IMG/VR virus record: IMGVR_UViG_2724679138_000004 | Source: a virus | Lineage: Duplodnaviria > Heunggongvirae > Uroviricota > Caudoviricetes | Reading direction: 5' to 3' (one strand) | DNA: 36,866 bases | Position numbers and translations under genes: made by a program | The notes under the pieces: generated by a model | The model's input: the letters and a program-made list of their open reading frames with translations, nothing else | Databases searched by the model: none | What the model was told of the DNA's origin: nothing | Part shown: one piece after another, positions 1,447 to 36,391 of the stretch | How positions within the stretch are numbered: the first letter of the stretch is position 1 | Layout: each line of letters opens with the position of its first letter

Positions 1447-1533
1447 GCTGAAAAACATAACCCATAAAATGCTAGCTGTACCAGGAACCACCTCCTTAGC
1501 CTGTGTAATCTCCCTTACACGGGCTTATTTTTT
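1447..1533 (+). ncRNA. cyaR: CyaR (RyeE) Hfq-dependent small RNA
   Basis: Matches the CyaR sequence from memory (GCTGAAAAACATAACCCATAAAATGCTAGCTGTACCAGGAACCACCTCCTTAGCC...); 3' terminator hairpin GCCTGTGTAA/TTACACGGGC followed by a T-run; lies directly downstream of yegQ as in E. coli. Confidence 0.85.
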
Positions 1534-1534
1534 A
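1507..1534. repeat. Prophage attachment core, left copy (AATCTCCCTTACACGGGCTTATTTTTTA), overlapping the cyaR terminator
   Basis: Identical 28-bp sequence recurs at 36364-36391, bracketing the whole prophage. Confidence 0.8.
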
Positions 1535-1597
1535 CGTACAACAAATTGAAATAAAAGGATTTATTTCTGGTCACGTCCACACATTGACCACATCGAC

Positions 1598-1622
1598 AAA
1601 AAAAGCCCCTCGACTGAGGGGC
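1598..1622 (-). terminator. Rho-independent terminator downstream of ogr
   Basis: GCCCCTC/GAGGGGC stem with GACT loop; on the minus strand it is followed by a run of 7 T. Confidence 0.6.
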
Positions 1623-1635
1623 TTCCTGTTTCTAA

Positions 1636-1854
1636 TTACATCCACATAATTTGCTGCCCTGACGGCAACGGGTGCGGCCTTACTGCGTGGACTTCTCCCG
1701 GCTTCACGATGTATCTCTGTACCGACTCATAAGTGATGAACGTGGCGCTGCAATTCACGTTCTGACACTGGTGATAACGCTCTTTTGTCGTGTCAGTGAT
1801 ATAGCGACTTGTACGCGCATGTGCGGCATGCTGGCATAAAGGACAATGAAACAT
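1636..1854 (-). CDS. ogr: Ogr late-gene transcriptional activator (zinc finger)
   Basis: 72-aa product starting MFHCPLCQHAAHARTSRYI with a C-x2-C...C-x4-C motif; the listed ORF extends upstream with no better start, ATG at 1852-1854 chosen to match P2 Ogr length. Confidence 0.9.
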   Translation of the reverse strand: MFHCPLCQHAAHARTSRYITDTTKERYHQCQNVNCSATFITYESVQRYIVKPGEVHAVRPHPLPSGQQIMWM

Positions 1855-1935
1855 CGCGAGCACCTCTTCCGGTTTTGTTGATGGTGCCATTTTAGTTAAA
1901 TTATCCTTATAAAACAAACAGATAAAATAAAAACA

Positions 1936-3099
1936 TCACTCATTATCTTCTGTTTCGTACTCCACATCAGAAAGCCTGACCTCAAGCTCCAGGGACGTCG
2001 TGAAGCCGCTATTATTCAGAAAATGTGTCACCTTAGTGATTGTCCAGTCCTGCTCGTCTATGACGCGCTTAAAGCCTGACACTTTGACCGGCGTTTCCGT
2101 GTAAATATCTGCCCGACCGGTAGCCATGCTGATGGAGAACTCCGCAACGCCCCGTTGCAGTTTATCCCACTTCGCCTGAGCGGCGCGCATGGCCTGCGCT
2201 TTCGTGGCATATACCGTGGTCAGGGCAAAAACATTGTCAGCCTCACCGGCCATGTATTCACCTTCGCGCGCTTCCGGCACTTTTGGCGCTTTCTTCTGCG
2301 TGACCGGTTTCGCTTTCGGGTGCTCCAGTGCGCGCAGGTGTTTCTCTTTCTTTTTGCGTTTCAGTTTTACCTTCTGCTTTTGTGGCTTCGGGTCTTTGGT
2401 GTGTAACCACTTTGCCGTTACGCCGGTGTAGGCTCCACGGTCAGCAATCGCAAAATGATGACGGTCGCCGTCGCTGCGGGTGATGGTAATCTGCGGGATT
2501 TTTTTACCGCTGGCCGTCACCCCCTGCCCCGCTTTGAGAAACAACAATTTTCCCATTTTTACCGACACCTCACCGCCGTTGCGTTCAGCAAGGCGGGTCA
2601 GGAATTTTGCATCAGACTCCTGCGACTGGTCGATGTGCGGGATTTTAATTCCGGCCAGTGACGGAGCGACACTGGCTTCCAGCCTGTTACGGGAGGCTAT
2701 CGCCTCAACAATCGCACCGAGCGTGGTGTCATGCCAGGAGCCTTCACGGCGGGAATTGAGCGTCCCGCGAAAATCTGCACTCCGGGCGCGGATGGTGACC
2801 ACATCCGGCGCGCCCCGGTGTTCAACCTCATCAACGGTAAATTTCCCTTTGCATACCAGGGCAAAACCTTTCCAGCCGATATACACCGTCAGGACAGCGC
2901 CACGAACCGGCAGCCCGACCTGCCCGTCGGCATCGTTCAGTTCAATATCAAGCTGGTCAGCCTCAAAGCCCCGGTTATCCGTCAGGGTCATACTCATCAG
3001 ACGGTCGCTGATATTGCCGGTAATATCCCTGCTGTCGAGCATCAGCATGTAATCCGGCATCAGCGTACTGCCTGCATCAAATGTCAGCGCATCCAGCAT
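1936..3099 (-). CDS. D: Tail protein D (late control gene D)
   Basis: 387 aa, same length and position as P2 gpD, immediately downstream of U. Confidence 0.9.
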   Translation of the reverse strand: MLDALTFDAGSTLMPDYMLMLDSRDITGNISDRLMSMTLTDNRGFEADQLDIELNDADGQVGLPVRGAVLTVYIGWKGFALVCKGKFTVDEVEHRGAPDVVTIRARSADFRGTLNSRREGSWHDTTLGAIVEAIASRNRLEASVAPSLAGIKIPHIDQSQESDAKFLTRLAERNGGEVSVKMGKLLFLKAGQGVTASGKKIPQITITRSDGDRHHFAIADRGAYTGVTAKWLHTKDPKPQKQKVKLKRKKKEKHLRALEHPKAKPVTQKKAPKVPEAREGEYMAGEADNVFALTTVYATKAQAMRAAQAKWDKLQRGVAEFSISMATGRADIYTETPVKVSGFKRVIDEQDWTITKVTHFLNNSGFTTSLELEVRLSDVEYETEDNE

Positions 3100-3578
3100 T
3101 ATCCCGCCCCCGTCATACCCGTGAATTTAGTCGCCATACTGCCAGCCTTACCAATGAGCGATTCCGCCTGTTTACCGATATCGCCATAAAGCGCGGCCAG
3201 TGACTCATCAACGCGGGTGAGCGACAGCGTAAAATCAATTTTTCGGGGTGTGCCGTCTGCAAAGAAAATACTCCCTGTTTCACTCACCTTGCTGATGACA
3301 TACATGCCGTAAATCATGCCGGTACCATCCAGCAACGGCCACGCCCGGCCTTCATCTGCCATCAGTCTGAGCGTGGTCATCGTCAGCTTGCCGCCGGTCA
3401 GTTCGGGATAAAGCACACCGGCAAGCGTCATGTTTTCCTCACCAACGCCGAGAAACTGGTAGGCATCCCGTTTACCGATACGGGAATTTGACGGCCAGCG
3501 ATAATCTGATTCACGCTGCATGGTCTGGTGTGGCAGCGTCTGGCGCATAAAAACAAACATACCTAACGCGAGCATCAT
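3099..3578 (-). CDS. U: Tail protein U
   Basis: 159 aa as in P2 gpU; overlaps the D start by 1 nt. Confidence 0.9.
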   Translation of the reverse strand: MMLALGMFVFMRQTLPHQTMQRESDYRWPSNSRIGKRDAYQFLGVGEENMTLAGVLYPELTGGKLTMTTLRLMADEGRAWPLLDGTGMIYGMYVISKVSETGSIFFADGTPRKIDFTLSLTRVDESLAALYGDIGKQAESLIGKAGSMATKFTGMTGAG

Positions 3579-3592
3579 TTTTCGTCACCTCC

Positions 3593-6040
3593 TTAACCGT
3601 CATGCATCATGCTGGCACGGGCGCGCGCACGTTTATCCCGCTCGTATTTTTCGAGCGCATCCTGTAACTGGCGGTCAAGCTGTGTCCCCGGTGCAGTACC
3701 ACCCGTCAGGCTGATGTGATATTCGTTTTTACTCTGGTCCACATAAGAGCGGCCAGCCGGTGCCGTGACCGGCTGATAAGCCTGATAGCCTGCATAAGAG
3801 CTGGTCGCCGGAATATAACCACCGCTGCAATACGTGGCGGCTTGAGTTCTGGCGGCGGTCTGGTCAAGTGTGTCTGACTCTTTGTTGATAACACCGAGTT
3901 TTTCCAGTACCCAGTCAATTCCGCTGCGCAGTTTGTTGAACGCATTAAGCGGCAGCATCAGCGCGTCAGCCAGTGCCTGCCCGAACATGACGCCCGTGTC
4001 ACGGCAACGGTTCAGGGTGTCCTGAGTGGCTTTGACCGGGGCAATCAGGTTTTTAAACCACTGCCACGCGGCCTGTAACTTTTCACCCAGCCAGTCAAAC
4101 ACCGGCTTAAGTGGCGTGAACAGTTCCCCCACCGGCGCAAATGCCACTTTCAGCCCTTCCACCACACCGCCAAAGAATGCGCTGACAGGCTCCCAGTATT
4201 TACGGATAAGCAACGCTCCGGCGACAATGGCGGCCACCACGGCCACAACCGGCCAGCTAATCGCCCCGATGGCCGTCATAACGGCACTGCCAACCGTCGT
4301 GAAGATTGCCCCCATTGCGCCTGCTGCCGCTATGATGGCATTGATGCCGGTGATAACCGGCCAGGCTACAAGACCAATGGCACCGATGATGCCAGTAAGC
4401 GCCAGTGCGCCACCGGCAATGATGCCGATGGTTGACGCCAGTGATTTGTTTTTCTGTATCCAGCCGTCGAGTTTTAACACATACTTTGTGGCCGTCTGCG
4501 TGAGCTTACGCAGCGCGCCTTCCTGCTGGTCAAACAGGTCAGTCCCCACCGCCTCATAAGCGGACTGAAACTCCTTAAAGTCACCGCCGAGGTTATCCTG
4601 CATGATTTTAACCAGCTCTTCCGTTTTACCGTCCGAGGCTTTCAGCGTGGCGGTCAGCGTATCCAGTTTTCCGCTTGCTGCCGCTGCCAGTAAAACGTTC
4701 GCTGATTTCAGGGCTTCCTCACCAAAAATGGTTTTAAGGTATTCCCCCTTCTGAGACGTTCCCAGCTTGTGTTTATCAAAGCTGGCCTGAATCTCTTTCA
4801 GAATGGTGAACAACGGACGCATATTTCCCTTTTTGTCCGAGGTTTTAACGCCAAGCTCTTTGAGTGCATCCCATGCTTTTCCAGTCGGTGCCTGTAATCG
4901 GGTGACAACGGCACTGCTACCCGTACCCGCCATTGACCCCCTGATGTTATTGTCATGCAGCACACCTGTCATGGCCGCTGCCTGTTCAAGACTTACACCT
5001 GCCGTCCTCGCAACCGGCCCGAGGTAAGTCAGTGCATCACTGAGTCCCTGAAAATCAGCCGCCGACTTATTCATCGTTGCCGACAACACGTCGCCCACAT
5101 GGCTGACATCATCATTTGACAGTTGAAAGGATGCCTTAGTCCCCAGCAACAGTTGCGCGTTTTCTTCCATCGACCGCTGATTCGCCAGTGCCATATTCAG
5201 CGTGACCGGCGTTGCCGCCTGAATGGCATCAACATCCCCACCGGCTTTCGCAATAATAATCTGCGCACCGGCTGCATCATCTGCCGAGGCTGCGGTATTG
5301 TCGCCGAGCTGACGCGCCTGCTTGCGTAGTGCAGCCATTTCGGCGGAGTCTTTTGCCACACCGAGCACGGCCTGCAATTCTGAGTTTTTCTGCGCAAACT
5401 CATAACCTGGCATCAGCAGCTTAACACCGGCCATCGTTCCCGCCGCCGCAATCCCCACACCGGCAGCGCCCACTGAGGCCATATTTCCGGCCAGTTCCTT
5501 TCCGGCCTGATAACGCTGTTTGACTGCGTTAAGTTTTGCCTGTTGCGCACTGACACGCGCCAGCGCATCACGCTGACGGTTAAGCTGTGCGGTGGTTTCA
5601 CTGATACGGTTTTTCAGTCCCTGCTCATCATGTGCAAGATTGCGGGTATTAATTCCCACAACGGCCAGTTCCCGCTGCTGGCGTTTAACGGAATCCGTCA
5701 GGCGGTTATATTTCGCCTGTAAGTCCTCCGCCGCACGCTTTGCGGATTCCAGCACTTTCGCCTGAGCACGGGTCGGTCGTTCGGTATTTTTAAACTGTGT
5801 GGCAAGGGCTTCGGCTTCCTGCCGAGCCTTTTCAAGTGCATGACCAGTCACGGCGAGCTGTGCACTGGTCTTGCGAAATCCCTCAATACGGGATGCCTGA
5901 CCGTTCAGCTCGCGCAGTGATTTTTGTGTTTCCCGGATATCCCCCGACAGCGATTTGCTCGCTGTGCGGATGGATTTAAACGGGCGGGATGCCTGGTCAA
6001 CAGCCCTGAGCAATACCTGTAATTTTACATTGTTACTCAT
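3593..6040 (-). CDS. T: Tail tape measure protein T
   Basis: 815 aa, coiled-coil N-terminus, Gly/Ala-rich hydrophobic central segment; P2 gpT length and position. Confidence 0.92.
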   Translation of the reverse strand: MSNNVKLQVLLRAVDQASRPFKSIRTASKSLSGDIRETQKSLRELNGQASRIEGFRKTSAQLAVTGHALEKARQEAEALATQFKNTERPTRAQAKVLESAKRAAEDLQAKYNRLTDSVKRQQRELAVVGINTRNLAHDEQGLKNRISETTAQLNRQRDALARVSAQQAKLNAVKQRYQAGKELAGNMASVGAAGVGIAAAGTMAGVKLLMPGYEFAQKNSELQAVLGVAKDSAEMAALRKQARQLGDNTAASADDAAGAQIIIAKAGGDVDAIQAATPVTLNMALANQRSMEENAQLLLGTKASFQLSNDDVSHVGDVLSATMNKSAADFQGLSDALTYLGPVARTAGVSLEQAAAMTGVLHDNNIRGSMAGTGSSAVVTRLQAPTGKAWDALKELGVKTSDKKGNMRPLFTILKEIQASFDKHKLGTSQKGEYLKTIFGEEALKSANVLLAAAASGKLDTLTATLKASDGKTEELVKIMQDNLGGDFKEFQSAYEAVGTDLFDQQEGALRKLTQTATKYVLKLDGWIQKNKSLASTIGIIAGGALALTGIIGAIGLVAWPVITGINAIIAAAGAMGAIFTTVGSAVMTAIGAISWPVVAVVAAIVAGALLIRKYWEPVSAFFGGVVEGLKVAFAPVGELFTPLKPVFDWLGEKLQAAWQWFKNLIAPVKATQDTLNRCRDTGVMFGQALADALMLPLNAFNKLRSGIDWVLEKLGVINKESDTLDQTAARTQAATYCSGGYIPATSSYAGYQAYQPVTAPAGRSYVDQSKNEYHISLTGGTAPGTQLDRQLQDALEKYERDKRARARASMMHDG

Positions 6041-6460
6041 TCGTGTTTCCGCTTCGCCGGAGCGCCTTTTCGCGCCATGTGATGAGTTCGGTCAGGCTCA
6101 TGGGATACAGTTCTGATGGCGGCCAGTGAAATACAACTGCCACATCCGCCATCAGGTCATCGACCGAGAGATTTTTCGGAAACGTCACTGCACCGAGTTC
6201 GGCGACAAAAAACCGACCACCTTACCGGCCAGCGCCACAAGGTCAGGCAGTTCCAGCGCGGCGACTTCCTGCTCGGTCAGCATCGGTGCCGTCATGCGCG
6301 GCAGCACCTTAATCAGTGCATCGACTTCGGAGTTCGCGACCGCTGCCAGACTGACACCGCGCAGCGTCCCGGCATTGGGTTTCATCAGCGTGACCTGTTC
6401 GATAACCTGCTCACCACGTTTGACCGGATTGTCCAGGGTAATGACATTTTCTTTGTTCAT
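6033..6460 (-). CDS. E': Tail assembly chaperone E+E' made by programmed -1 frameshift at T TTT TTG (plus-strand 6207-6213)
   Basis: After a -1 slip the frame stays open for about 58 further codons (...DLMADVAVVFHWPPSELYPMSLTELITWREKALRRSGNTNE) to TAA at 6033-6035, overlapping the T start; total about 142 aa as for P2 E+E'. Confidence 0.8.
6185..6460 (-). CDS. E: Tail assembly chaperone E
   Basis: 91 aa as in P2 gpE; ends just after the slippery site GGT TTT TTG. Confidence 0.9.
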   Translation of the reverse strand: MNKENVITLDNPVKRGEQVIEQVTLMKPNAGTLRGVSLAAVANSEVDALIKVLPRMTAPMLTEQEVAALELPDLVALAGKVVGFLSPNSVQ

Positions 6461-6516
6461 GGTTTTCTCACTTCTGAATCGGGGTTAACCGGTCAGCCAG
6501 GCTGACCGGATGAAAA

Positions 6517-7035
6517 TCACAGGCCGATATTGCGGCGGTGTTGCTCCAGCCGGTCGACGCCGTTCACCTTCTCAATCATGTTGATGGTGTCAATTTCGAC
6601 CAGCTCCTTACCATCCATCGTCAGCCGGAAATAGGTGCAGACCACGGAGATTTTCGACTCGGTATCTTCTCCCTGTTTCCCCTCGCCGGTGTCGATTTCT
6701 TTCTGACGTCCACGCATGACCACTTCGACGGCCACCGTTTCGCCAGTATCGTCACGCTGGTAAGAGCCAGCAAAACGAATCGGCACGGCATCCACACCGG
6801 TTGCGGCGTAAAGCTCCCAGATAACCGAATCCGGGAAGCCCCCGAGCGACCACTCCATTGACAGCGCATCGTCATCAAGGCCGAGGTCTACCGGTGCGCT
6901 GCCATTCATCCCCGCACCGCGATAGTTTTCGAGCTTACGGGTCAGTTTTGGCAGCGTGACGGACTTTGCAACGCCCTGATAGCTGTAGCCGTTCAGAAAG
7001 ACGTTCATTAACTTGAGTTTGCGCGGCATTGCCAT
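6517..7035 (-). CDS. FII: Tail tube protein FII
   Basis: 172 aa; P2 gpFII length and position. Confidence 0.92.
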   Translation of the reverse strand: MAMPRKLKLMNVFLNGYSYQGVAKSVTLPKLTRKLENYRGAGMNGSAPVDLGLDDDALSMEWSLGGFPDSVIWELYAATGVDAVPIRFAGSYQRDDTGETVAVEVVMRGRQKEIDTGEGKQGEDTESKISVVCTYFRLTMDGKELVEIDTINMIEKVNGVDRLEQHRRNIGL

Positions 7036-7047
7036 CGGTCAGGCTCC

Positions 7048-8226
7048 TTAATTGCTGTTAACCGAAGTGACCAGATTTGCCAGGTATTTATCGGTAATAC
7101 GCTGGCGCAGGGTCAGGTTTTCGAGAGGAGGCACCGGGGTATAGTCATAGTCGATATACAGTTTTCCGGCCTTGAGGGTTTCCGCATCGTTGGATTCTTC
7201 GCTGAACCAGCAGGTCGCATCCACGATATAGCCGTTTGTTTTCAGCTCACGGAATTTGGCATTGATGCCGTCAACGATGTCGCGAATCAGCGTTGCGGTG
7301 ATGGGCTTGTCCACCGCCCACATGTGCGCCTCAGCCATCGTGTCGGCCAGCACCTGCGCGGTGCGGGTGTAGTTTTCAAAGAGGAACAGCGGGTCATCAG
7401 AGCAGGTACGGTTACCCCAGAATCGGAAACCGTCGCGGCGAATCAGCGTAGTGACACCTGCCTCGTTCAGCAGGTCAGCATCGGTGCCGGACTCCTGCAA
7501 ATCCCAGAATACAGATGCGCTGATGCCGGTAACACCGTTCACCCCGACGTTGGACAGCGTTTTATGCCAGCCCTGATCCTGGTCGATTTTAGCACGCAGA
7601 CCCAGCGCACGGGCGGTGGCGGTGGTACTGGTGACCGTATCCCATGCGAGGAAATCCGGCCAGATGACCATCAGCTCACGCTGGCTGAAATTCTGGCGGT
7701 AGGCTTTCACCTCGGAAATGGTTTTACAGCCCCATGCGCTGATATACCCGAAAGCGCGCAGCTTCTGACAGACTGATGCCAGTGCAACAGCCACCTCTTT
7801 GGTGTCCAGTCCCGGCACACCGAGAATACGCGGTTTAACACCGGTTACCGACTCTGCCGCCAGCAGGGCTTTCAGTCCGGTGTACTGACCGTTTTCGTCG
7901 GTGGTGCCGATGATATTGGAAACGGTCTGCGCAAGTTTCGTTTCTTCGTCTTCGCCGGTGCCGTCTTCCACACGTACAACAACGGTGACCGGTTTTGACT
8001 GGTCAGCGATGGCCTGCAACGACGCCGCCAGCGTGCCTTTTTTACCGGCCTTTGCAATTGCGCTCTGCACATTGGTAATCAGCACCGGTTTATTGAGGGG
8101 AAAGGTTTCCGCATCCGCATCGCTGGCCGTGCAGACCATGCCGACAATGGCAGTGGATACGGTGGAAATGACGCGGGTGCCGTCGTTAATCTCCAGCACC
8201 TGCACGCCGTGATGATAGTCACTCAT
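7048..8226 (-). CDS. FI: Contractile tail sheath protein FI
   Basis: 392 aa; P2 gpFI-like sequence and position upstream of FII. Confidence 0.92.
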   Translation of the reverse strand: MSDYHHGVQVLEINDGTRVISTVSTAIVGMVCTASDADAETFPLNKPVLITNVQSAIAKAGKKGTLAASLQAIADQSKPVTVVVRVEDGTGEDEETKLAQTVSNIIGTTDENGQYTGLKALLAAESVTGVKPRILGVPGLDTKEVAVALASVCQKLRAFGYISAWGCKTISEVKAYRQNFSQRELMVIWPDFLAWDTVTSTTATARALGLRAKIDQDQGWHKTLSNVGVNGVTGISASVFWDLQESGTDADLLNEAGVTTLIRRDGFRFWGNRTCSDDPLFLFENYTRTAQVLADTMAEAHMWAVDKPITATLIRDIVDGINAKFRELKTNGYIVDATCWFSEESNDAETLKAGKLYIDYDYTPVPPLENLTLRQRITDKYLANLVTSVNSN

Positions 8227-8349: not shown

Positions 8350-8751
8350 AGTCGTGATTTGTACTCACTCATTTTCCGACTGACAATTTACTTAGCCCAA
8401 AAGCTATCAAATCTGACAGTCTGCTTTGAGCGATGAGCGGACGTTAATTTGGGGTTGTACGCCAGAACCGCAGAAATTTCCGTGACGCATAATGTTTGCG
8501 GTTGTCTGCCTGTACGTAAGACCGCCGTCAACCGGACAGTAAAGAAATGGCCGTTTGGAACGAAAAATCACTGACCGCAGCGTCTCACATAGCTGGTACG
8601 GATAAATTCTCACTCACGGCACCATAAACGTACACGTCAGCACATGCCAAACATGCTTCAAAATTCGACTAATTCACTGCGCCAGAAATTTCTGGCGGTT
8701 CCGGTACAGCCCCCCTATATTATGCGAATTGTTAATTAACACTGATCAGCA

Positions 8752-9810
8752 TTATTTTTCCTGTGTATCATCATTCAAATCCGGTGCAGTCCGAAGTACA
8801 TTCGTGAAGTTAAGAAGCATTTTTTTTGTGCCAAAAGTGAACATCTCAGAGATTTCAGATGAAATGCTATCCCAAATAAAAATGATATGCCTCAAATACT
8901 CAACAACTCCAGGCCGGTTCAATGTACCTTCGATAAGATAATGTTCAGGAATACCCTCCATTATTCCAGTCTTTCTTATCCAGAAAAGTCCAACCCTGTT
9001 GGCCGATTCACCACCTGCAAGCACATAACTACGACGTTGATCTGTGTTTGGAATAGAAAGTATTTCAAAAATTAAAGGCACGATCATTTCAAGCCTTACG
9101 AATGGCCTAGGATGTGTACCAACTGGTTCTGTTTGAACCTCATAAAGTTTTTCGCCTTGAAAACGATGTAACATTAATGATATACCACATGTCAAAAAGC
9201 AAATTGCCAATTCGCAATCTTCATTAATGGCAAGTTGTCGAACAATTTCTATTACACACATGTATGTGGAAAAATAATCGGCTGCAAGTTCCGTTGCGTG
9301 CCAAATGGCAGATGCATCGTCATTGTCTGATGATAAATTATTTAAGTGAATTTCAGACATTACATTAATTTCGGAACTATACCTGTTCCTTATAAATAAA
9401 TGGCCCTGAGTTAAGTGTCCTAACTCATGAAAAAAAACCCATGTCAAACCTGCTAGAAAAATGTTTTTAGTGAAATTAGTTTTATCCCACTCATTTCTTA
9501 AAGTGGTAAAGTTGGTTTGCCCATTAAACCACATATCATAAACTTCATCATCTTTACCAGAGTGAACATAATCTACAAAAGCAGCAGCATCATCATATAA
9601 TGATCGGATTAATTTATATGTGATTGATATAGCATGCCTTGGTGGTTCATCACGCTCTGAGTAAACTAAAGCTCTAGCGTTCACAATATCTGTAGTTTCA
9701 AATTGTAAAGCGAGACTGCCATTAATTTCTTTATAGTAATGTTCATTCAAATCTTCTGTAATAGAAGACAAAACACTTGTAGCCCAGTTGTATAGCGCGA
9801 TACTTTCCAT
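8752..9810 (-). CDS. Hypothetical protein with zincin-like HExxH motif (FFHELGHLTQGH); candidate defence cargo in the FI-G (Z/fun) hotspot
   Basis: 352-aa ORF, visibly AT-rich relative to flanking tail genes; HELGH encoded at 9415-9429; acidic residues downstream (HATELAAD) could supply the third zinc ligand. No family assignment possible without search. Confidence 0.75.
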   Translation of the reverse strand: MESIALYNWATSVLSSITEDLNEHYYKEINGSLALQFETTDIVNARALVYSERDEPPRHAISITYKLIRSLYDDAAAFVDYVHSGKDDEVYDMWFNGQTNFTTLRNEWDKTNFTKNIFLAGLTWVFFHELGHLTQGHLFIRNRYSSEINVMSEIHLNNLSSDNDDASAIWHATELAADYFSTYMCVIEIVRQLAINEDCELAICFLTCGISLMLHRFQGEKLYEVQTEPVGTHPRPFVRLEMIVPLIFEILSIPNTDQRRSYVLAGGESANRVGLFWIRKTGIMEGIPEHYLIEGTLNRPGVVEYLRHIIFIWDSISSEISEMFTFGTKKMLLNFTNVLRTAPDLNDDTQEK

Positions 9811-10094
9811 TTGACACCATTAGAAAATTTGTTATTTATTTCTATTTTTTGAAAAATCACTTTTTAAAAAGTGGTCATATGCATAACTGAAAGCTGCGTT
9901 GTCACTGTCAAAATCATTTTCCGTTATGGCTTCCCATCCCCTCAACCACTTGTGCCTAATGCGCCACTTATGGGGTCCGCTTGGAAAACGGAAAATATCC
10001 TACGTTAAGCCTGTTTTTTAAGCAAGCATGACAGGCAGCTTTGAGCGAGGAGCGAACATGTGGTTTTTCAATAGTAACACCCGCTCCTTCCATC

Positions 10095-10415
10095 CTACTG
10101 CGGAGTGCAATCTATAGATAAAATCGTTTTCCGTGACTTAGCTTCTGGAGGGGACATTTCCTCGCTTTCGCTGATATTGAAGCTCCATGCGCCAACGCCT
10201 TTGACTTTCGAAAACAACAATTCACCTTCATAGCCTAGATCGTCAGTGCCAGCGATTATGACCATCCCACTCAACGTTCTCTGGTATGCATTCTCAAAAA
10301 CACGCCCCTCATAATCAATAGTTGCCCGTTCTTTGTCGAAGACAACCGCTTTGTCGCCCTCACAACGCATTACTGACTTGGCTTGTGATACACAGGAAAA
10401 ACCCAGAAGGATCAA
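10095..10415 (-). CDS. Small hypothetical protein, possible Sec signal peptide (…LLILILLGFSCVSQA|KSV)
   Basis: 106-aa ORF with TTG start in the track; no in-frame ATG upstream, so the true start and the signal-peptide reading are uncertain. Confidence 0.4.
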   Translation of the reverse strand: MILLGFSCVSQAKSVMRCEGDKAVVFDKERATIDYEGRVFENAYQRTLSGMVIIAGTDDLGYEGELLFSKVKGVGAWSFNISESEEMSPPEAKSRKTILSIDCTPQ

Positions 10416-10481
10416 TATCAGCAGTCTTTTAATTATTTATCTTCTACATACATAATTAAGGAGTGAAGTGGTCAACAAAAA

Positions 10482-10520
10482 CTGGCCGCATTATAAGATA
10501 TGTTTCAAGAACCACAAACG
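10482..10520 (-). promoter_or_regulatory. Candidate sigma70 promoter for the cargo genes (perfect -10 TATAAT on the minus strand at plus 10490-10495; weak -35 TTTGTG)
   Basis: Hexamers read by eye in the G-cargo intergenic region; 17-nt spacer. Confidence 0.3.
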
Positions 10521-13385: not shown

Positions 13386-13395
13386 TATTCCTCAC

Positions 13396-14827: not shown

Positions 14828-14831
14828 GGTT

Positions 14832-22039: not shown

Positions 22040-22097
22040 AGTTTTTCCTGAAATTAAGGGTTAATCGTGAAGGTTTTCCCGGACTGACTGACGCCGG

Positions 22098-27938: not shown

Positions 27939-28106
27939 CAGCCTCTGCTATCTTTCGACCGTACGTAATGTCGTCGGCTACGGCACCATCGTAGTTGACG
28001 ACGGTGGGGCCTCGCTGATAGGTCCATAGTGGACGCTTTTTTGTAAAAGCAAAAACTGACAATTTAATGTTGTTGACTGCCGCATACCAAGCGAATCGCT
28101 GGTGCG
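27927..28106 (-). ncRNA. Candidate retron msr/msd-like non-coding RNA upstream of the RT
   Basis: 9-bp inverted repeats (plus-strand CTGACAATT 28056-28064 and AATTGTCAG 27927-27935) bracket about 120 nt containing hairpins, e.g. GTCGTC-aa-CTACG-loop-CGTAG-cc-GACGAC at about 27968-28005; hypothetical. Confidence 0.3.
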
Positions 28107-28112
28107 CTAAGA

Positions 28113-28141
28113 ATAATGCAACAAAAAAATAAGAATTTCAA
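28113..28141 (-). promoter_or_regulatory. Candidate sigma70 promoter driving the candidate ncRNA and RT (TTGAAA-17 nt-CATTAT on the minus strand)
   Basis: -35 at plus 28136-28141, -10 at plus 28113-28118, 17-nt spacer. Confidence 0.4.
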
Positions 28142-28179
28142 CCGGGTAACTGCAAGCCAGCGACATCGTTTAGCGCGCA

Positions 28180-28198
28180 GTGCTTTCCCCGCCTCGCC
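28180..28198. other. cos cohesive-end site (reverse complement of GGCGAGGCGGGGAAAGCAC)
   Basis: Exact match to the 19-nt P2 cohesive end as I recall it; lies between Q and A as expected. Confidence 0.75.
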
Positions 28199-28404
28199 CG
28201 CCCGCTTCATGGGGCGGTTTTAATGCAGTTGCATGACCACTCAACTAGCGCGCCAGTCCTGATGTCGCCAGGCAGTTATTGTTCTCTGACTTGCATGCGC
28301 TTCGATGCAGAGTAATGCACTTCCTGAATTGCTCGCATTCGCATCGTTATCATGATAGAAAACAGGTAGTTATTTGTGCGCAACTTAAGAAGAAATCACT
28401 AATT

Positions 28405-29948
28405 ATGAAAAAGATTTATGAATTAACTACTGGTAGAGCGCTTAAGTATTTTCTGCAGCATGATTCATACACTACTCTGGAGCTACCCAGTTATGTCGAT
28501 TTTTCTTCCTTGCTTGAAGAAATCAACTCCGCGATAGATGAAGGTAAAATCAACTTCCAACCTGACTCCAAGTCATTGATGGGGAAGAATATAAATTACG
28601 AGGTTTTAGTCAGCAAAGATGGCTTATATAGCTGGCGACGAATAACACTAATTAATCCTCTGTACTACGTGTATTTTTGTAAACTTATTACATCCCCTTC
28701 CAACTGGAAGGCTATAAGGAATAAATTTAGAGAGTTTGAGTCTAATGATCTTTTTTATGCTCAAGTACCCCAGTGAGCAAAAAGAACACCTCAAACGTAG
28801 CTGCATCTGTTTTAAACTGGTGGGAAGATTTTGAACAAAAAAGTCTTTCATTGGCTCTTGAGTATGAGTTCATGTTCAGCACAGATATTTCAAACTTCTA
28901 CCCTTCTATTTACACTCATAGCTTTGAATGGGTATTCATCTCAAAAGAAGAGGCCAAAAAGAAAGAAAATAACAATAACCCAGGACGATTGATTGACACT
29001 CATATCCAGATGATGATGAGTAATCAGACAAACGGAATACCATTGGGTAGTACGTTGATGGATACATTTGCCGAATTAATTTTAGGCGAAATTGATTTAC
29101 AGCTAAGAAAAAAAACTGAAGAGCAAAAAATAACGGATTACAAAGTAGTTCGCTACAGAGATGATTATCGAATATTTTCAAGCAGTAAAGATGATTTGGA
29201 CAAAATCTCAAAGTGTTTGGTTGAGGTCTTAGGTGAGTTTGGGCTTGATTTAAACTCAAGAAAAACAGAACTACATGACGACATCATTCTTCACTCCCTT
29301 AAATCAGCAAAAAAAGAATATATTATAGAAAGGTCGTTCAACTCCCTACAGAAAATGTTGTATGCAATATATTTATTTTCTTTAAAACATCAAAACTCCA
29401 AAATTACAGTTAGATATTTAAATGATTTCTTGCGAAAATTATTTAGGAAGAAAAAGATCACAAATAGTGGGCATCAACTAGATGCAATGCTTGGAATTAT
29501 TTCAAGCATCATGGCTAAAAACCCAACCACCTACCCAGTGGGAATGGCTATTTTCGCAAAACTCTTGACCTTCCTTTATGACGACGATGAACTCAAATTT
29601 GGCAAGTTACAACAACTTCATTGTAAACTAGGTAAACAACCAAATACTGAAATGTTAGATATTTGGTTTCAACGAGTTCAAGGGAAGATACACACACAAT
29701 GGGAAGGCGATTACAAAACAGCCCTATGTCAACGCATAAATGATGAACTCAAGGAAAAAAAAACATTTACCATTGATGGCCTGTGGGATGTAGAGTGGAT
29801 TCCGGGTTCAGCCAAAAATAAAAACAAACAGAAAATACTATCAATTTTGAAAAAAACAAAAATTGTGGATTTAGATGCATTCGAAGAAATGGATAATGAT
29901 ATTACACCAGAAGAAGTGAACTTATTCGACAAGGAACACAGCGCTTAA
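28405..29948 (+). CDS. Abi/UG-type reverse transcriptase split by a -1 frame change at a T6 run (segments 28405-28776 and 28773-29948); possible pseudogene or programmed frameshift
   Basis: Segment 1 carries RT motif 1-like RRITLINPLYYVYFCKL; segment 2 carries FMFSTDISNFYPSI, NGIPLGSTLMDTFAEL, VVRYRDDY (YRDD at 29154-29165) and FGLDLNSRKTEL; frame 0 opens at 28749 and the T6 run is 28751-28756. Confidence 0.75.
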
Positions 29949-30435: not shown

Positions 30436-32712
30436 TTATATGTTTGTTGAGAATCCCGGCCACTCATCAGCGACCGGATACGTGAATTTTTCCCCGTCAT
30501 AATTTACGGTCGCGCCACGCGCCAGCGCCTCAAGCTCCCATCGCTGTGGCCTGATACCGTTCTGAGCAAGGTCAACGCGGATACGGGTAATTTGCGTTCG
30601 TTCCGACCGGGTCAGTCTGGCCGATGGCGCTATTTCATGTGGTTTTAACGGGCTTCCGTTTCTCTGCTGACGATTTGGTGTTCTCAGTTCGTGTTTTAAT
30701 GCACCTCTGAGCGCCCTCACGACCTCTGGCTCATTCCATTCGATAACACCGTCATCAACCAGATTAAGCACTGCTGCGGCGTGCTCAGAAGGTGTGGGAG
30801 CCGGTAACGAAGTATCACCGTCGGTAAGCTTTCCACAGTTATTGACAGGACTCCGAGGCGCGGCGATGCCGCTTTTTAAAGTCAAAGGCTCAACGACCGG
30901 CACTTTCGGAACAATGCGCCAGTCCGTCGTTCTGGTGATATGAATATGACGCGCGCCGAGATGCGGCGCGTAAATGCCGACCACTCTCTCGACTTCTTCC
31001 TCGTACTCGTTAACGTCATCCGACGGGCTACGGGCAACCCTGACAGTCTGGCAATCGCGCGGGACATTTGCCCCACCCTGCGCGCTGATATACAGCGCAA
31101 AATCACCACTGTCTGCGGCGGCGCGTGCAGCCTCGACGCGCTCGTCAAACTCATCAGCAATGCTGACGCCGCGAGGCAATTTGCGTAGTTCACGGTAAGC
31201 CCCCATTGTCGGCAGGCCAACCGTTTTAAATTGCGGAATGCGCCACGTTGACGCCCATGCGGTAACAGCCGCGGCAGTATCTTTCAGCGGTCTGCCGGTA
31301 TCGTTATCGAGCTGCCCATCCAGTGCATAGCCGTCGATATTTTTTGAGATGTATTTCGCGATATACCCCGCAGCACCGCCCCAGTTAAGGTGTTTTGCCT
31401 GAAAACGGTTTCGCGCGGCTCCTCTTTCGTCGCCATCCTCTTTGAGCGCATAGCGACGCATGATTTCGATAATCTGGTTACGCTGGCGTGGATGACAAAA
31501 AAGCATCATATGCCAGTGCGGCGTTCCGTCGTGGTGTGGCTCGACGACACGCAAACCGTAGACCTGTAAATCATTATCCTTGAATGCCGTGCGCATCAGG
31601 CTCCAGATACGGCAGAGATAACGCTGCGCATCCTTTGGATTAAATGCCTCATCGTTCCAGCCGTGATTAAGCTGAACGGTTTTACTTTCGCCTTTTCCGA
31701 CCTGACGTGTCGGGTGATACTTTGACGGCGCGGTCAGCGTGATAAACATCCCCAAATCACCCTCTGCGGCGGCGTAACGCTCAATACCGGCAATGGTGTT
31801 CATCAGCTCCATCCGGCGAATTTCTGGATTAGAAATACTGCCCATCACCTTACTGATAAGGTCGATGCGCTCGCCGGTTTCCCTGTTTTCAAGGTCACAC
31901 GATTTAAGAAATTCCAGATTTGCCTGGCGGCGCGCACGCACATCACGAATGGCATGTTTACTGGCATAAGGAGAACGGTCTTTATTGACCTCCCCGACAG
32001 CAATCAGTAACGCCTCATGCCAGCGCATACGCTGGCCTTTAAGCTGACTAATCCACCACTCATCGTTAAACAGACGGGCAATGGCAGAATATGCCTGCCT
32101 CGTGGTCATCTGTCCTTTACGGTATTTTTTCCAGTAGAGCGGGGAAATATTGAAAGCACGTGCAGCGCCAGCAACATGACCATACAGGTGAGCCTGCGCC
32201 TCATCCGTAAACAGCGATTCTTTTTCACCATGCGCATCAACCCATGCATCGCAGAGTTCCTCATACATCATGAAAAGCTGCGATGAGATACGGGCGGCAA
32301 ACTTTTTCAGCTCCTTGTCATTCATTCCAGGCAGGCGCGCATAGTGGTCACGCTCTGCCAGAAACAGCAACGACGCGTCGGTGTTCATTTCATGGCGCTG
32401 ATTCACGCGCTCAATGCGCGGCCATAAACGACGCTGAAAAGTGGATGTGAGGAAATAAAACCCGTGCACCGGGCTTTTATTGCGCCGGATGTAGTCATAG
32501 CGTGAAGTAAACAGCGAGCGCAAAAAGTAAGGCAGGCGGTTAATCGTGGATAAAACACCTTGCACCTGACGCATCTCGTCACGTGTAAGGGGTCTTTCGC
32601 GCCCGACAGCCTCGCGTGGCGCGTTCCATACATAAGCACCGGTAAACGTCTTACCGGTGCCTGCGGCAAATGCTGACGGAGGGACAAAACGCCCGGAGGC
32701 TTTAACGGCCAT
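30436..32712 (-). CDS. A: Replication initiation protein A (rolling-circle nickase)
   Basis: ATG at 32710-32712 gives 758 aa (MAVKASGRFVPP...), close to P2 gpA; the listed ORF extends to an upstream TTG. Confidence 0.9.
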   Translation of the reverse strand: MAVKASGRFVPPSAFAAGTGKTFTGAYVWNAPREAVGRERPLTRDEMRQVQGVLSTINRLPYFLRSLFTSRYDYIRRNKSPVHGFYFLTSTFQRRLWPRIERVNQRHEMNTDASLLFLAERDHYARLPGMNDKELKKFAARISSQLFMMYEELCDAWVDAHGEKESLFTDEAQAHLYGHVAGAARAFNISPLYWKKYRKGQMTTRQAYSAIARLFNDEWWISQLKGQRMRWHEALLIAVGEVNKDRSPYASKHAIRDVRARRQANLEFLKSCDLENRETGERIDLISKVMGSISNPEIRRMELMNTIAGIERYAAAEGDLGMFITLTAPSKYHPTRQVGKGESKTVQLNHGWNDEAFNPKDAQRYLCRIWSLMRTAFKDNDLQVYGLRVVEPHHDGTPHWHMMLFCHPRQRNQIIEIMRRYALKEDGDERGAARNRFQAKHLNWGGAAGYIAKYISKNIDGYALDGQLDNDTGRPLKDTAAAVTAWASTWRIPQFKTVGLPTMGAYRELRKLPRGVSIADEFDERVEAARAAADSGDFALYISAQGGANVPRDCQTVRVARSPSDDVNEYEEEVERVVGIYAPHLGARHIHITRTTDWRIVPKVPVVEPLTLKSGIAAPRSPVNNCGKLTDGDTSLPAPTPSEHAAAVLNLVDDGVIEWNEPEVVRALRGALKHELRTPNRQQRNGSPLKPHEIAPSARLTRSERTQITRIRVDLAQNGIRPQRWELEALARGATVNYDGEKFTYPVADEWPGFSTNI

Positions 32713-32977
32713 ATGAGCCAAAAGCCTCTGAACAACGCTTGCTGAGTTGCTCAACCTGCGCGTTTAAATCAGCAAAAGACTTTGCGCTTCCGGTCAGAAT
32801 ATCGTGATGCATCAGGCCGGAAACGAGCTGGCTTAATTTCGGGTAATAACCAACCACCGCCAGCCATTCCTGACCGGCGTTTTTACCGCTTTCCGCTCTC
32901 TTTTTCTCGTGGAGAATAAACTGAAAGCTGTCACTGGTAACGACATAACGTTCGCCAATTTCAATACGAATACTCAT
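32702..32977 (-). CDS. P2 orf83-like hypothetical protein
   Basis: 91-aa ORF in the conserved early-operon position upstream of A. Confidence 0.7.
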   Translation of the reverse strand: MSIRIEIGERYVVTSDSFQFILHEKKRAESGKNAGQEWLAVVGYYPKLSQLVSGLMHHDILTGSAKSFADLNAQVEQLSKRCSEAFGSYGR

Positions 32978-33198
32978 GCCGTTCTCCGGTAATGTTTGTT
33001 TTTTGCTTCAAAGACTGACTGACAGGAAACACAACGCGTGGCTGACGGGTAAGCCGCACGACGGGCAGCAGGTATTGGCGCGTCACACTCTTCGCAAACC
33101 AGCGCAGAAGCACCGCAATGTTTTACCCTTGCCGCGTTAATCTGGCGCTCCAGTAATTCAGCCTGTTGTTCCTGAATAAAATCTACGTTGTCCGGCAT
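32974..33198 (-). CDS. P2 orf82-like DksA/TraR-type C4 zinc-finger protein
   Basis: 74 aa with C-x2-C...C-x2-C (CEECDAPIPAARRAAYPSATRCVSCQ). Confidence 0.8.
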   Translation of the reverse strand: MPDNVDFIQEQQAELLERQINAARVKHCGASALVCEECDAPIPAARRAAYPSATRCVSCQSVFEAKNKHYRRTA

Positions 33199-33200
33199 TA

Positions 33201-33503
33201 TCAGCTCCTTTTATCGTTAAGTTTCCTGGATACATCAGCGCAATAACTGGCAAGTTCTGTCGTTAATTTTGTCAGTTCATCCACTGAGGAAATTTGCTTG
33301 TGGAATACAGCGCGTTTAACAAGTAAATTGACCACATCAGACAGGAGGTTTAATTCATTCTGATAAATCGCGATAACAGATTCAGTTATGTCGCGTTTTT
33401 CTTTATCAAGGTAAAGTTGAATAAGAGACAAATCGCCATTTTTCATAACGGCGATTTTTAAGGCGTTATTCAGTAATACAACTGAATGAGAACAGGACAT
33501 CAA
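33201..33503 (-). CDS. P2 orf81-like hypothetical protein
   Basis: 100-aa ORF, abutting orf82 and orf80. Confidence 0.7.
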
Positions 33504-33724
33504 AGCACCTCCCCGCGAGACAATCCGATATTGTGAAATTTTTCCGACTCCTGACTGAGCAGCTCGACTATCTCCACGCGGGATAACTCCGCCTTTGTGA
33601 TATGGCGAATCATGGCGTCAAGATGAGAAGAAAAGCGAGTCGCTGCGTCGGCCTGTGCTTCGGCTCTGGCCTGTTGCAGCAGTAATGCGTATTTACCGCA
33701 CTTGTTTTCAGAAACTGTATGCAT
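33500..33724 (-). CDS. P2 orf80-like hypothetical protein
   Basis: 74-aa ORF in the conserved early-operon position. Confidence 0.7.
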
Positions 33725-33787
33725 GACTTTCTCCAGGCAAAAAGAAGCCCCGCACGATTAAGTGCGTTAAAAACTCTGGTTAATTAT

Positions 33788-34288
33788 TTAATGCAGATAT
33801 TGCTCTGGTTTTACCGACGTCAGAATTGTCGGTGCATACTCAAACAGGCTGAATAATTCACGTAATGCACGGAATAAAGCATCACGCCAGTAACATGATT
33901 CTTCATTAATTCGCCAGTATGGCTGGTTGAATTCTTTTTCAGTCAATCCGGCATGCATAAATAAAGTACGACGCTGACTGACTGTTAAAAAACTAATATA
34001 TGCATACTCACTTGCGCCAACCTGACGGCGTTTTGAGAATGCCCCACGCAATTCATCAATTGCACAAACCAACCGTTCACGTTCGACGTCGTTCATTTCT
34101 TCAAAACGCATCGTTGCGTGACGCTGTTTTAACTGCGCATGGAAGCAAACCGTTAGCCGTTCGCGTTCCATCATCTGATTATAATAATCACATGTATCCT
34201 GCCAGCGAGGGACGGCAAGATGCTTGCCAATTATCCGGCGCATAGCTGCTGGCTGTTTTTCAACGAGATTGAGCGTCATCACTGTCAT
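33788..34288 (-). CDS. B: Replication protein B (helicase-loader-like)
   Basis: ATG at 34286-34288 gives 166 aa (MTVMTLNLVEKQPAAMRRI...), as P2 gpB. Confidence 0.88.
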   Translation of the reverse strand: MTVMTLNLVEKQPAAMRRIIGKHLAVPRWQDTCDYYNQMMERERLTVCFHAQLKQRHATMRFEEMNDVERERLVCAIDELRGAFSKRRQVGASEYAYISFLTVSQRRTLFMHAGLTEKEFNQPYWRINEESCYWRDALFRALRELFSLFEYAPTILTSVKPEQYLH

Positions 34289-34455
34289 TTCCATACCCTC
34301 CGGCTTTTCAGAAAGGTCAGAGCCTTTTTTAACGGACTCTGTTTTTTGGTGCGGATAATGATTCCCTTACGCCCCTTACCGTGGGTGATGGTGAAGTCAA
34401 TCGCCCTGGGGCTTTCGTTACGCAGTAACTGAGCAATACAACGAGGCTCATTCAT
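34285..34455 (-). CDS. P2 orf78-like small protein
   Basis: 56 aa from the internal ATG of the listed 64-aa ORF; start uncertain. Confidence 0.5.
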   Translation of the reverse strand: MNEPRCIAQLLRNESPRAIDFTITHGKGRKGIIIRTKKQSPLKKALTFLKSRRVWK

Positions 34456-34465
34456 ACGGTTCTCC

Positions 34466-34741
34466 TTAACGTGGTTCACCGAGACCTAACCACATCAACC
34501 AGCCGTCACGAATCTCTTTAGGGCGGCTTTCATAAGCCAGTTTTAGTCCGTTATTCCATGCCGGAAGGTATACCCAATATTCACCTGCACGACCTGAAGC
34601 TGATTGTGGATCGGTCATATCAATTACAGGCAGCTTTCCTTTATCGATCATCCGACGAACCGCTCCTGTCGATTTTCCTATTAGTTTTGCGAACTCCTGA
34701 TAAGGAATCGCATCAGTCATGAGTGTTACTTGCTTGCTCAT
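34466..34741 (-). CDS. cox: Cox (excisionase and repressor of Pc)
   Basis: 91 aa (MSKQVTLMTDAIPYQEFAKLIGK...), first gene of the early operon, divergent from C. Confidence 0.9.
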   Translation of the reverse strand: MSKQVTLMTDAIPYQEFAKLIGKSTGAVRRMIDKGKLPVIDMTDPQSASGRAGEYWVYLPAWNNGLKLAYESRPKEIRDGWLMWLGLGEPR

Positions 34742-34855
34742 GTCGTCCTCTAGCCCTCATGAATTGCGTTTAATGTCTTATAATGCCTTTTAGTGCCCAC
34801 ATCCAAGCACTAAACAATCTACATCTAAACTAAATACTATTGAGATCTAAACACC
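34742..34855. promoter_or_regulatory. Immunity switch region with face-to-face Pe/Pc promoters and two C-repressor operator half-sites
   Basis: Direct repeats ATCTAAAC at 34823-34830 and 34845-34852, 22 bp centre to centre, as described for the P2 C operators flanking the Pe -10. Confidence 0.6.
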
Positions 34856-35155
34856 ATGTCAAACACGATAAGCGAGAAGATAGTCTTAATGCGAAAATCA
34901 GAGTATTTGAGCAGACAACAACTTGCTGATTTAACAGGGGTTCCGTATGGCACGCTGAGTTACTATGAAAGTGGTCGTTCAACACCTCCAACAGATGTCA
35001 TGATGAACATCCTGCAGACCCCACAATTCACCAAATACACTTTATGGTTCATGACCAATCAGATCGCTCCTGAGTCCGGGCAAATTGCGCCCGCTCTCGC
35101 ACACTTTGGGCAAAACGAAACAACGTCGCCCCACTCCGGTCAAAAGACTGGTTAA
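34856..35155 (+). CDS. C: Immunity repressor C
   Basis: 99 aa with HTH (…LSRQQLADLTGVPYGTLSYYESG…); P2 C length and position. Confidence 0.9.
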   Translation: MSNTISEKIVLMRKSEYLSRQQLADLTGVPYGTLSYYESGRSTPPTDVMMNILQTPQFTKYTLWFMTNQIAPESGQIAPALAHFGQNETTSPHSGQKTG

Positions 35156-35270
35156 CAATTCATCGTGAATATATTCATCACAAGTACCTACTATTGGTGG
35201 CTAAATTTCAGCCACCACGAAAAAAGCGATTAGTAGTCGCAAAAAAACACACCACTCGGAGGGTTTTCTG

Positions 35271-36284
35271 ATGGCAATCAAAAAACTCGATGATGGTCGA
35301 TATGAAGTGGACATCCGCCCTACTGGACGTAATGGAAAACGCATCCGTAGGAAGTTTGATAAGAAAAGCGAAGCTGTCGCTTTCGAGAAATACACGTTGT
35401 ACAACCACCACAATAAAGAATGGCTATCAAAACCAACAGACAAGCGACGTCTGTCGGAGCTGACACAGATCTGGTGGGATTTAAAGGGTAAACACGAAGA
35501 GCATGGGAAATCTAATCTTGGGAAAATTGAAATCTTCACAAAAATAACGAATGACCCATGCGCATTTCAAATTACGAAATCGCTTATCAGCCAGTACTGC
35601 GCCACCCGAAGAAGTCAGGGTATTAAACCTTCGAGTATCAATCGTGATTTAACATGTATTAGCGGCATGTTTACAGCCCTGATTGAAGCGGAGTTATTCT
35701 TTGGTGAGCACCCTATCAGAGGGACAAAAAGGCTTAAGGAGGAAAAACCAGACACAGGCTATCTCACGCAGGAAGAAATTGCCTTACTGCTTGCTGCTCT
35801 TGACGGCGACAACAAAAAGATTGCGATTCTTTGCCTGAGTACTGGAGCACGTTGGGGAGAAGCAGCTCGTTTGAAAGCAGAAAATATCATCCATAACCGC
35901 GTCACGTTTGTTAAAACGAAAACAAACAAACCACGCACCGTCCCGATCTCAGAGGCTGTTGCCAAAATGATCGCGGATAACAAACGAGGTTTTTTATTCC
36001 CTGATGCTGATTACCCTCGCTTCAGACGAACAATGAAAGCAATAAAACCGGATTTGCCAATGGGGCAAGCTACACATGCACTAAGGCACAGCTTTGCCAC
36101 TCATTTCATGATTAATGGAGGAAGTATTATCACGCTACAACGGATACTAGGTCACACGCGGATTGAGCAAACTATGGTTTACGCTCATTTTGCGCCAGAG
36201 TACCTTCAGGACGCCATTTCTCTTAATCCGCTAAGAGGTGGTACTGAGGTCGAGAGTGTCCACACTGTGTCCACAGTAGAGTAA
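35271..36284 (+). CDS. int: Tyrosine-type integrase
   Basis: 337 aa; RBS GGAGGG; catalytic-domain residues (…HALRHSFATH…, …LGHTRIEQTMVYAH…); adjacent to the right attachment core. Confidence 0.92.
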   Translation: MAIKKLDDGRYEVDIRPTGRNGKRIRRKFDKKSEAVAFEKYTLYNHHNKEWLSKPTDKRRLSELTQIWWDLKGKHEEHGKSNLGKIEIFTKITNDPCAFQITKSLISQYCATRRSQGIKPSSINRDLTCISGMFTALIEAELFFGEHPIRGTKRLKEEKPDTGYLTQEEIALLLAALDGDNKKIAILCLSTGARWGEAARLKAENIIHNRVTFVKTKTNKPRTVPISEAVAKMIADNKRGFLFPDADYPRFRRTMKAIKPDLPMGQATHALRHSFATHFMINGGSIITLQRILGHTRIEQTMVYAHFAPEYLQDAISLNPLRGGTEVESVHTVSTVE

Positions 36285-36363
36285 CGTTTAAGGGCTTTCA
36301 GTGGTAATTTATGCCGCTCAAACCCGCATTGTACCGTTGAAAGCCCCTACTGGTGACACCCTA

Positions 36364-36391
36364 AATCTCCCTTACACGGGCTTATTTTTTA
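36364..36391. repeat. Prophage attachment core, right copy
   Basis: 28-bp identity with 1507-1534; the upstream sequence here cannot form the cyaR terminator stem, so this is the displaced copy. Confidence 0.8.

Follow-up and report, generated by a model that had tools for sequence, protein, structure and literature searches.

The IMG/VR virus record IMGVR_UViG_2724679138_000004 is a stretch of 36,866 nucleotides (nt) assigned to the Caudoviricetes, and the whole of it is called the window here. Both of its ends are bacterial chromosome: the window starts at the ATG of yegQ (trhP) and ends at the ATG of yegR, which is read from the opposite strand. Between these two genes lie the gene for the small regulatory RNA (sRNA) CyaR, also named RyeE, and 34.9 kb of DNA of the coliphage P2, enclosed by a short direct repeat. 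There can be very little doubt that the window holds a complete P2 prophage, with the immunity, the integrase and the phage attachment site (attP) of P2 and with other cargo, at locI, which is the last 27 nt of cyaR. The arrangement is already known, being the classical P2 locI of the literature from 1992 to 2011, and its discovery value is small, the same int-yegR junction occurring in about one in seven complete Escherichia coli genomes. Its value lies instead in annotation, as a base-exact case of an sRNA terminator that serves as the bacterial attachment site (attB) and is regenerated by the copy that the phage carries. The window also shows a P2 backbone furnished with three accessory defence-type modules in known variable loci. 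The features at the two chromosomal junctions are as follows.

1-1362, plus strand: yegQ/trhP, left chromosomal flank, colinear with K-12 trhP and named yegQ in the annotation of E. coli EC93
1445-1533, plus strand: cyaR (ryeE), intact sRNA gene, from Rfam; the K-12 cyaR annotation maps to 1447-1533
1498-1525, plus strand: stem-loop of the cyaR terminator, followed by its T-run at 1526-1533, from the fold and a terminator scan
1507-1534, plus strand: junction on the cyaR/ogr side, termed attL, made up of the 27-nt P2 core (1507-1533) and one base identical by chance
36364-36391, plus strand: junction on the int/yegR side, termed attR, the second core copy (T-run at 36383-36390), with no terminator 5' stem upstream
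36549-36866, minus strand: yegR, right chromosomal flank, colinear with K-12 yegR

The direct repeat is the P2 attachment core

In E. coli K-12, transcription of cyaR depends on CRP-cAMP, and regulation of its targets depends on Hfq. In the window the CyaR/RyeE family (RF00112) was matched at 1445-1530 on the plus strand with 100.7 bits, against a gathering score of 47, and no other Rfam family reached its gathering threshold anywhere in the window. The 28-bp sequence AATCTCCCTTACACGGGCTTATTTTTTA is present exactly twice, at 1507-1534 and at 36364-36391, both times on the plus strand. No further copy was found in the window with up to three mismatches allowed, and none appeared in 100 shuffles; similarity between the two copies extends to 35 nt at 91%. 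The repeat spans the final 2 nt of the 5' stem of the cyaR terminator, the loop, the entire 3' stem and the T-run. In a 45-nt frame around the left copy, the fold is that of a strong terminator (-15.9 kcal/mol, z -6.65), while the equivalent frame around the right copy has no terminator fold (-3.5 kcal/mol, z +0.73). An earlier note, made from the letters of the window, had placed the repeat over the loop, 3' stem and T-run of the cyaR terminator, with an intact sRNA at the left copy and no 5' stem at the right, and had named the 3' end of cyaR as the attachment site. Its placement of the repeat proved accurate to the base; the Rfam score and the two folding energies bear out its description of the copies, and the Rfam position, colinearity with K-12 and the identity of the core all agree on the attachment site.

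That identity comes from the P2 record AF063097, in which the annotated attP core, AAAAAATAAGCCCGTGTAAGGGAGATT at 24356-24382, equals nt 1-27 of the repeat when read as the reverse complement. That both flanks carry the same 28th base is due to chance. The same 27 nt are given in the literature as the core of locI, 5'-AAAAAATAAGCCCGTGTAAGGGAGATT-3', shared with attP (PMC3931495); locI is the preferred site of P2 in E. coli C, as that paper summarises from Barreiro & Haggård-Ljungquist 1992. P2 Int tolerates many secondary sites as well, with core mismatches of up to 37% (PMC3931495).

When the int-proximal end of the element was joined to its ogr-proximal end via one core, the reconstructed attP differed from that of P2 by only a handful of bases across the Int P-arm, IHF, core, Cox and Int P'-arm sites. 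The arm sites listed here were mapped from the features of the P2 record by alignment and are predicted binding sites.

1532-1565: P arm, IHF site, from P2 feature 24324-24357
1569-1596: P arm, Int arm-type site, GGTCACGTCCACACATTGACCACATCGA, from P2 feature 24293-24320
36250-36276: P' arm, Int arm-type site, from P2 feature 24470-24496
36274-36347: P' arm, Cox binding region, from P2 feature 24399-24472

A direct repeat that flanks an element may in principle be a coincidence, or the target-site duplication of a transposable element, and the bare flanking repeat is all that can be said for such an origin. The zero count of chance matches speaks against it, as do the absence of a transposase and the finding that the repeat is the annotated P2 attP core, lying between int and ogr by circular permutation. 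These observations refute it, and we give it practically no weight. Two further candidates were rejected. A tRNA or tmRNA as the true integration target was discarded on the ARAGORN search, which found neither in the window. A hairpin at the int-side core acting as the terminator of int was likewise set aside: the fold there is a 3-bp helix only, and the terminator scan returned no terminator-like site at this core.

A complete P2 backbone between the two cores

About 26 kb of the DNA between the repeats is P2-like at 94-98% nucleotide identity, in three blocks colinear with AF063097: 1507-8445 (94%), 12661-25856 (97%) and 30445-36391 (97.7%). A megablast search of phage genomes with 1507-25000 as the query returned P2, P2_AC1, vB_EcoM-12474, Wphi and others at about 96% over 81-86% of the query. 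When all 42 P2 proteins were compared with the window by tblastn, 38 were present, uninterrupted and at full length, with 75-100% amino acid identity; the exception as to length is the tail fibre H, in which the match to P2 is confined to the N-terminal 251 amino acids (aa). The missing four, fun(Z), orf91, tin and old, are all non-essential. Ogr, C, Cox, N, K, X, Y, I, FII, orf78 and orf82 are identical to their P2 counterparts throughout, Int is 99.4% and A 97.6% identical, and the late, lysis, early and regulatory genes stand in P2 order. The backbone is made up of the following features.

1603-1624: ogr/F operon terminator hairpin, P2 annotation 24265-24288, a terminator-like match
1636-1854, minus strand: ogr, late-gene activator, 72 of 72 aa identical to P2 Ogr
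1936-8226, minus strand: F operon tail genes D, U, T, E/E', FII and FI, full length, 92-100% aa identity
10605-15811, minus strand: V operon, V, W, J, I, H and G, by P2 homology; G 75% identical
11136-13385, minus strand: tail fibre H, 749 aa against 669 aa in P2
15895-16680, plus strand: homologue of P2 orf30 (non-essential, function unknown), 85% aa identity, phrog_2407
16752-22952, minus strand: O operon, O, N, M, L, X, Y, K, lysA, lysB, lysC, R and S, with roles in capsid, lysis and tail completion; all full length, 94-100% aa identity
23126-25917, plus strand: P (terminase ATPase), 99.8% identical, and Q (portal), 96.5% over 339 of 344 aa
28180-28198: cos, 19-nt cohesive-end sequence, the exact reverse complement of P2 cosL/cosR, with flanks also conserved with P2
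30114-30374: small open reading frame (ORF) at the position of P2 orf91, phrog_13272
30436-34741, minus strand: early operon, cox, orf78, B, orf80-83 and A, 89-100% aa identity to P2
34856-35155, plus strand: C, immunity repressor, 99 of 99 aa identical to P2 C
35271-36284, plus strand: int, P2 tyrosine integrase, 99.4% aa identity, with matches to tyrosine recombinase families

The repressor C of P2 is not known to be SOS-inducible. Within the backbone, the C-terminal part of H and protein G diverge from P2. The H gene carries three tandem 132-nt (44-aa) repeats at 12378-12866, 83-88% identical to one another, of which P2 has a single copy.

The completeness of the element can be judged further from E. 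coli EC93 (NZ_CP061329.1), which matches the window at 99.989% identity with four differences. The window has one extra T at 8000, by which its tail-sheath gene FI is intact (396 of 396 aa aligned to P2), and the RefSeq annotation of EC93 flags the same gene as frameshifted. At about 28751 a run of seven T in EC93 is a run of six in the window, a 1-bp deletion that splits the ORF of an AbiP2-like reverse transcriptase into two; the EC93 gene is intact, at 514 aa. The remaining two are single-nucleotide differences at 30412 and 31383. Since the FI frameshift is found only in EC93 and the AbiP2-like frameshift only in the window, single-base homopolymer calls in this lineage are uncertain, and the split in the AbiP2-like gene may be a slip that truly inactivated it or an error made in sequencing the homopolymer.

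No observation contradicts the identification of the element as P2; its viability and its recombination activity are predictions. The two frameshifts, the one in FI of EC93 and the one in the cargo of the window, would favour a different view, namely a P2-like prophage that has become cryptic, neither excises nor forms particles and stands at an earlier stage of decay than the remnant carried by K-12. That view has to contend with a backbone in which all P2 genes of the window are full length, FI included, with two perfect cores, an exact cos and conserved arm sites, and with the position of the sole frameshift in a non-essential accessory gene. We consider a cryptic element unlikely, though worth keeping in mind. 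Judged by its letters, the element is an intact P2, as the earlier note had proposed in calling it an intact P2-like prophage.

The empty site and its distribution

A query of 1009 nt was built by joining the two flanks of the prophage through a single core (window 1001-1534 and 36392-36866). It was found contiguous, at 100% identity over its whole length, in NZ_CP027462.1, and the joined flanks were covered to at least 80% at one place in 4565 of the 5426 complete E. coli genomes. Where the site is empty, alignments of the genome to the window end exactly at 1534 on the left and begin at 36364 on the right; because these alignments break at the edges of the core, the boundaries have the precision of a site-specific insertion. 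Of the 5426 genomes, 812 (15%) have the int-core-yegR junction and 1126 (21%) the cyaR-core-ogr junction. The excess of junctions on the cyaR side represents, at least in part, ogr-proximal stumps of the K-12 type.

The site extends beyond E. coli. In a scan of contigs, cyaR was found to end in the exact 27-mer in Enterobacter hormaechei and several species of Kluyvera as well. Both in Kluyvera intermedia and in a record labelled E. coli ECDA1023, the cyaR of which looks Kluyvera-like, the P arm of a P2-like phage other than P2 follows it. With the core at the end of cyaR and P2-like arms next to it in Kluyvera, the site is therefore used across genera.

Regeneration of cyaR upon integration

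A simple scheme, drawn from the established biology of P2, would account for these junctions. Int, together with IHF, would recombine the 27-nt core in the attP of the circular phage with its exact 27-nt counterpart in the chromosome; for excision, Cox would be required in addition. Since the core of the phage holds a second copy of these terminator parts of cyaR (loop, 3' stem and T-run), the junction on the cyaR side would rebuild the sRNA gene exactly, much as tRNA genes are restored by the integrases that target them, and the int-side junction would keep an orphan 3' half that forms no terminator. Because the phage carries the last 27 nt of cyaR, the gene would be regenerated unchanged on integration.

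The outcome can be read at the cyaR-side junction, where cyaR in the lysogen is base for base the cyaR of K-12 and of the empty site, through to the end of the T-run. The earlier note had further claimed that CyaR can change in its terminator and 3' end when the phage integrates or excises; with the gene identical in lysogen, K-12 and empty site, this claim is unsupported for the window. In its general form it would hold that lysogens and non-lysogens differ in the terminator, the 3' end or the level of CyaR. The T-run is indeed polymorphic, with six T in most empty sites and seven in BL21(DE3) and Shigella flexneri, and K-12 has T6 at its cyaR junction and T7 in the stump of the other. Furthermore, the sequence that follows the T-run differs, reading ACGTACAA in the occupied site and ATGCATAA in the empty one. 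Within the window, however, the two cores are identical and the fold of the terminator is unchanged, and homopolymer length can shift without recombination or through sequencing error. A change in CyaR upon integration thus strikes us as improbable, and regeneration of an unaltered gene remains the preferred account. It would fit the sequences of K-12 if the T-run of its cyaR were phage-derived; independent homopolymer slippage would fit them equally. In strain R11, a G-to-A change in the 3' stem turns a U-G pair of the terminator into a U-A pair, and a 170-bp insertion lies nearer to yegR.

The K-12 remnant and related insertions

The earlier note stated that K-12 has only ogrK and a fragment of gpD (yegZ) between cyaR and yegR, and it had set the alignment with this interval as a test beforehand. 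The alignment agrees with this statement and gives the same left junction, with no differing junction sequence. NC_000913.3 is colinear with window 1-2148 at 98.8% and then jumps to 36373-36866, the colinear stretch comprising the same cyaR, the same left junction, ogrK and a 3' stump of gpD, which is yegZ. RefSeq records the stretch between cyaR and yegR as the 'cryptic prophage PR-X'. The deletion runs from inside gpD (about 2148) to inside the other core (36373), of which it has removed the first 9 nt. PR-X thus resembles the prophage of the window in its orientation, in its junction at the 3' end of cyaR and in its sequence through ogr into gpD, and it is set apart by this deletion and by T7 in its stump against T6. 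It is what decay has left of a previous, similar insertion at this junction.

These relationships accord with the published record. The locI of K-12 is described as occupied by a P2 remnant (PMC3931495), and a published table names 'cyaR RNA' as the place of insertion for Wphi2 (P2) in E. coli W, for ogr-D' in K-12 and for P2*B in E. coli B (Archer et al. 2011, PMC3032704, Table 2). Wphi2 and P2*B are P2-type, like the element of the window, and occupy the same site (PMC3032704), but they belong to other strains and have other accessory genes, and they are likened here by the site record. Phage Wphi matches window 1507-25000, which is most of the prophage, at 96.4% over 81% by megablast. P2 itself (AF063097 / NC_001895), at locI of E. 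coli C, shares with the window the 27-nt core, near-identical attP arms, the gene order and cos; it differs in having fun(Z), orf91, tin and old, in place of which the window has a Lit-like HEXXH protein, an Ec48-family retron and the AbiP2-like reverse transcriptase. Moreover, ryeE in E. coli was 'previously known to be targeted by phages' (Bobay et al. 2013, PMC3603311, citing Wassarman et al. 2001). Temperate elements that integrate at the 3' end of a tRNA, a tmRNA or another sRNA gene, such as ryeB/sdsR of Salmonella, are alike in two respects, namely that a phage-borne copy of the 3' part of the structured RNA gene regenerates that gene and that the dyad of a hairpin is the recombinase core (PMC3603311, PMC3333887). 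The present case is unlike them in that its target is no tRNA but the terminator of an Hfq-dependent sRNA.

Accessory cargo in the variable loci

Three stretches of the element are not of P2 origin, and their content of guanine and cytosine (GC) is 0.35-0.40 against 0.54 in the backbone.

8446-10516: Z/fun variable locus, no P2 homology, GC 0.395, low-GC cargo that replaces P2 fun(Z)
8752-9810, minus strand: HEXXH protein of 352 aa in the Z/fun locus, a probable distant relative of the Lit peptidase
25960-28170, minus strand: Ec48-family (type IV) retron between Q and cos, from PADLOC, NCBIfam and RefSeq names
25960-26667, minus strand: 2TM effector of the retron, PADLOC 2TM_IV at 4.1e-85 and NCBIfam equivalog retron_Ec48_2TM with 226.7 bits against a cutoff of 65
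26664-27848 (to 27938 from a TTG start), minus strand: reverse transcriptase of the retron, PADLOC RT_IV at 7.6e-177
About 27960-28170, minus strand: candidate msr/msd region, from an inverted-repeat hint
28405-29948, plus strand: AbiP2-like reverse transcriptase in the tin/old locus between cos and A, PADLOC AbiP2 on both halves

The 352-aa protein of the Z/fun locus carries an HELGH motif at residues 128-132 and a weak PADLOC match to Lit (E 1.4e-5, over 59 residues only). A Pfam scan of it was empty at E <=0.01, no PHROG or NCBIfam family was assigned, tblastn against 50,697 phage records gave no match, and no relative by sequence was found in the PDB. Its family comprises 13 homologue clusters in 5.8 billion proteins, all with a precomputed assignment to PF10463 (Peptidase_U49). 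A 2026 survey of the defence hotspots of P2 recorded Lit in one P2-like prophage only. The Lit-like Z/fun locus is present in 9 of the 5426 complete E. coli genomes, and its edges hold short plasmid- or Tn3-like scraps at about 8447-8713 and 9968-10054.

The retron stands on the opposite side of cos from the position of tin and old in P2. For its RNA, the candidate msr/msd region offers one pair of 12-nt inverted repeats, 83% identical, at 27968-27979 and 28155-28166, and no Rfam match to a retron non-coding RNA was obtained in 27850-28300 at E <=1. As regards the AbiP2-like gene, a single ORF of about 490-515 aa would be expected, and in the window the profile was matched as two pieces. The block formed by the retron and AbiP2 is found in 42 of the 5426 genomes.

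A P-arm relic in the right chromosomal flank

Beyond the int-side core, the chromosomal flank contains a short feature that resembles the P arm of the prophage itself.

36403-36442: P2-type P-arm fossil in the chromosomal flank, resembling the P2 P arm at 1562-1601

The local alignment of the two has a score of 38, where shuffles gave 15.3 +/- 2.3 and none of 2000 scored as high. The left flanks of both cores, compared as a control, showed no similarity (score 12), which confines the resemblance to the right side. The matching segment is the annotated Int P-arm binding site, in which one of the two Int arm repeats is intact (CCATTGACCACATCGA), and about 40-60 bp directly after the core remain colinear with the P arm of P2. 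A longer relic, in which the sequence CAATGAAACAGAAGGATTTAT of the IHF region is kept, lies at the empty site of Escherichia sp. MOD1-EC7003, and E. coli and Shigella have a 16-bp deletion in the IHF region of the relic.

Homology of this fossil to the P2 P arm is well supported by the alignments, and the unoccupied site of Escherichia looks to be the final remains of a P2-like prophage of much greater age. We hold it unlikely, however, that the empty cyaR-yegR site can be taken in full as such a very old stump with a relic that perhaps still binds Int. If the relic did bind Int, it could help to explain the preference of P2 for locI over secondary sites, and the int-side junction in lysogens would be a pseudo-attP, its core flanked left and right by arm-type sites. 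Any function of the fossil arm is purely conjectural. No mention of it was found in the literature searched, which did not include Barreiro & Haggård-Ljungquist 1992.

Farther into the same flank, yegR matches phrog_21109, a PHROG family with no function assigned, at 4e-70. The match may reflect errors in prophage boundaries within PHROG, or yegR itself may be left over from an ancient prophage.

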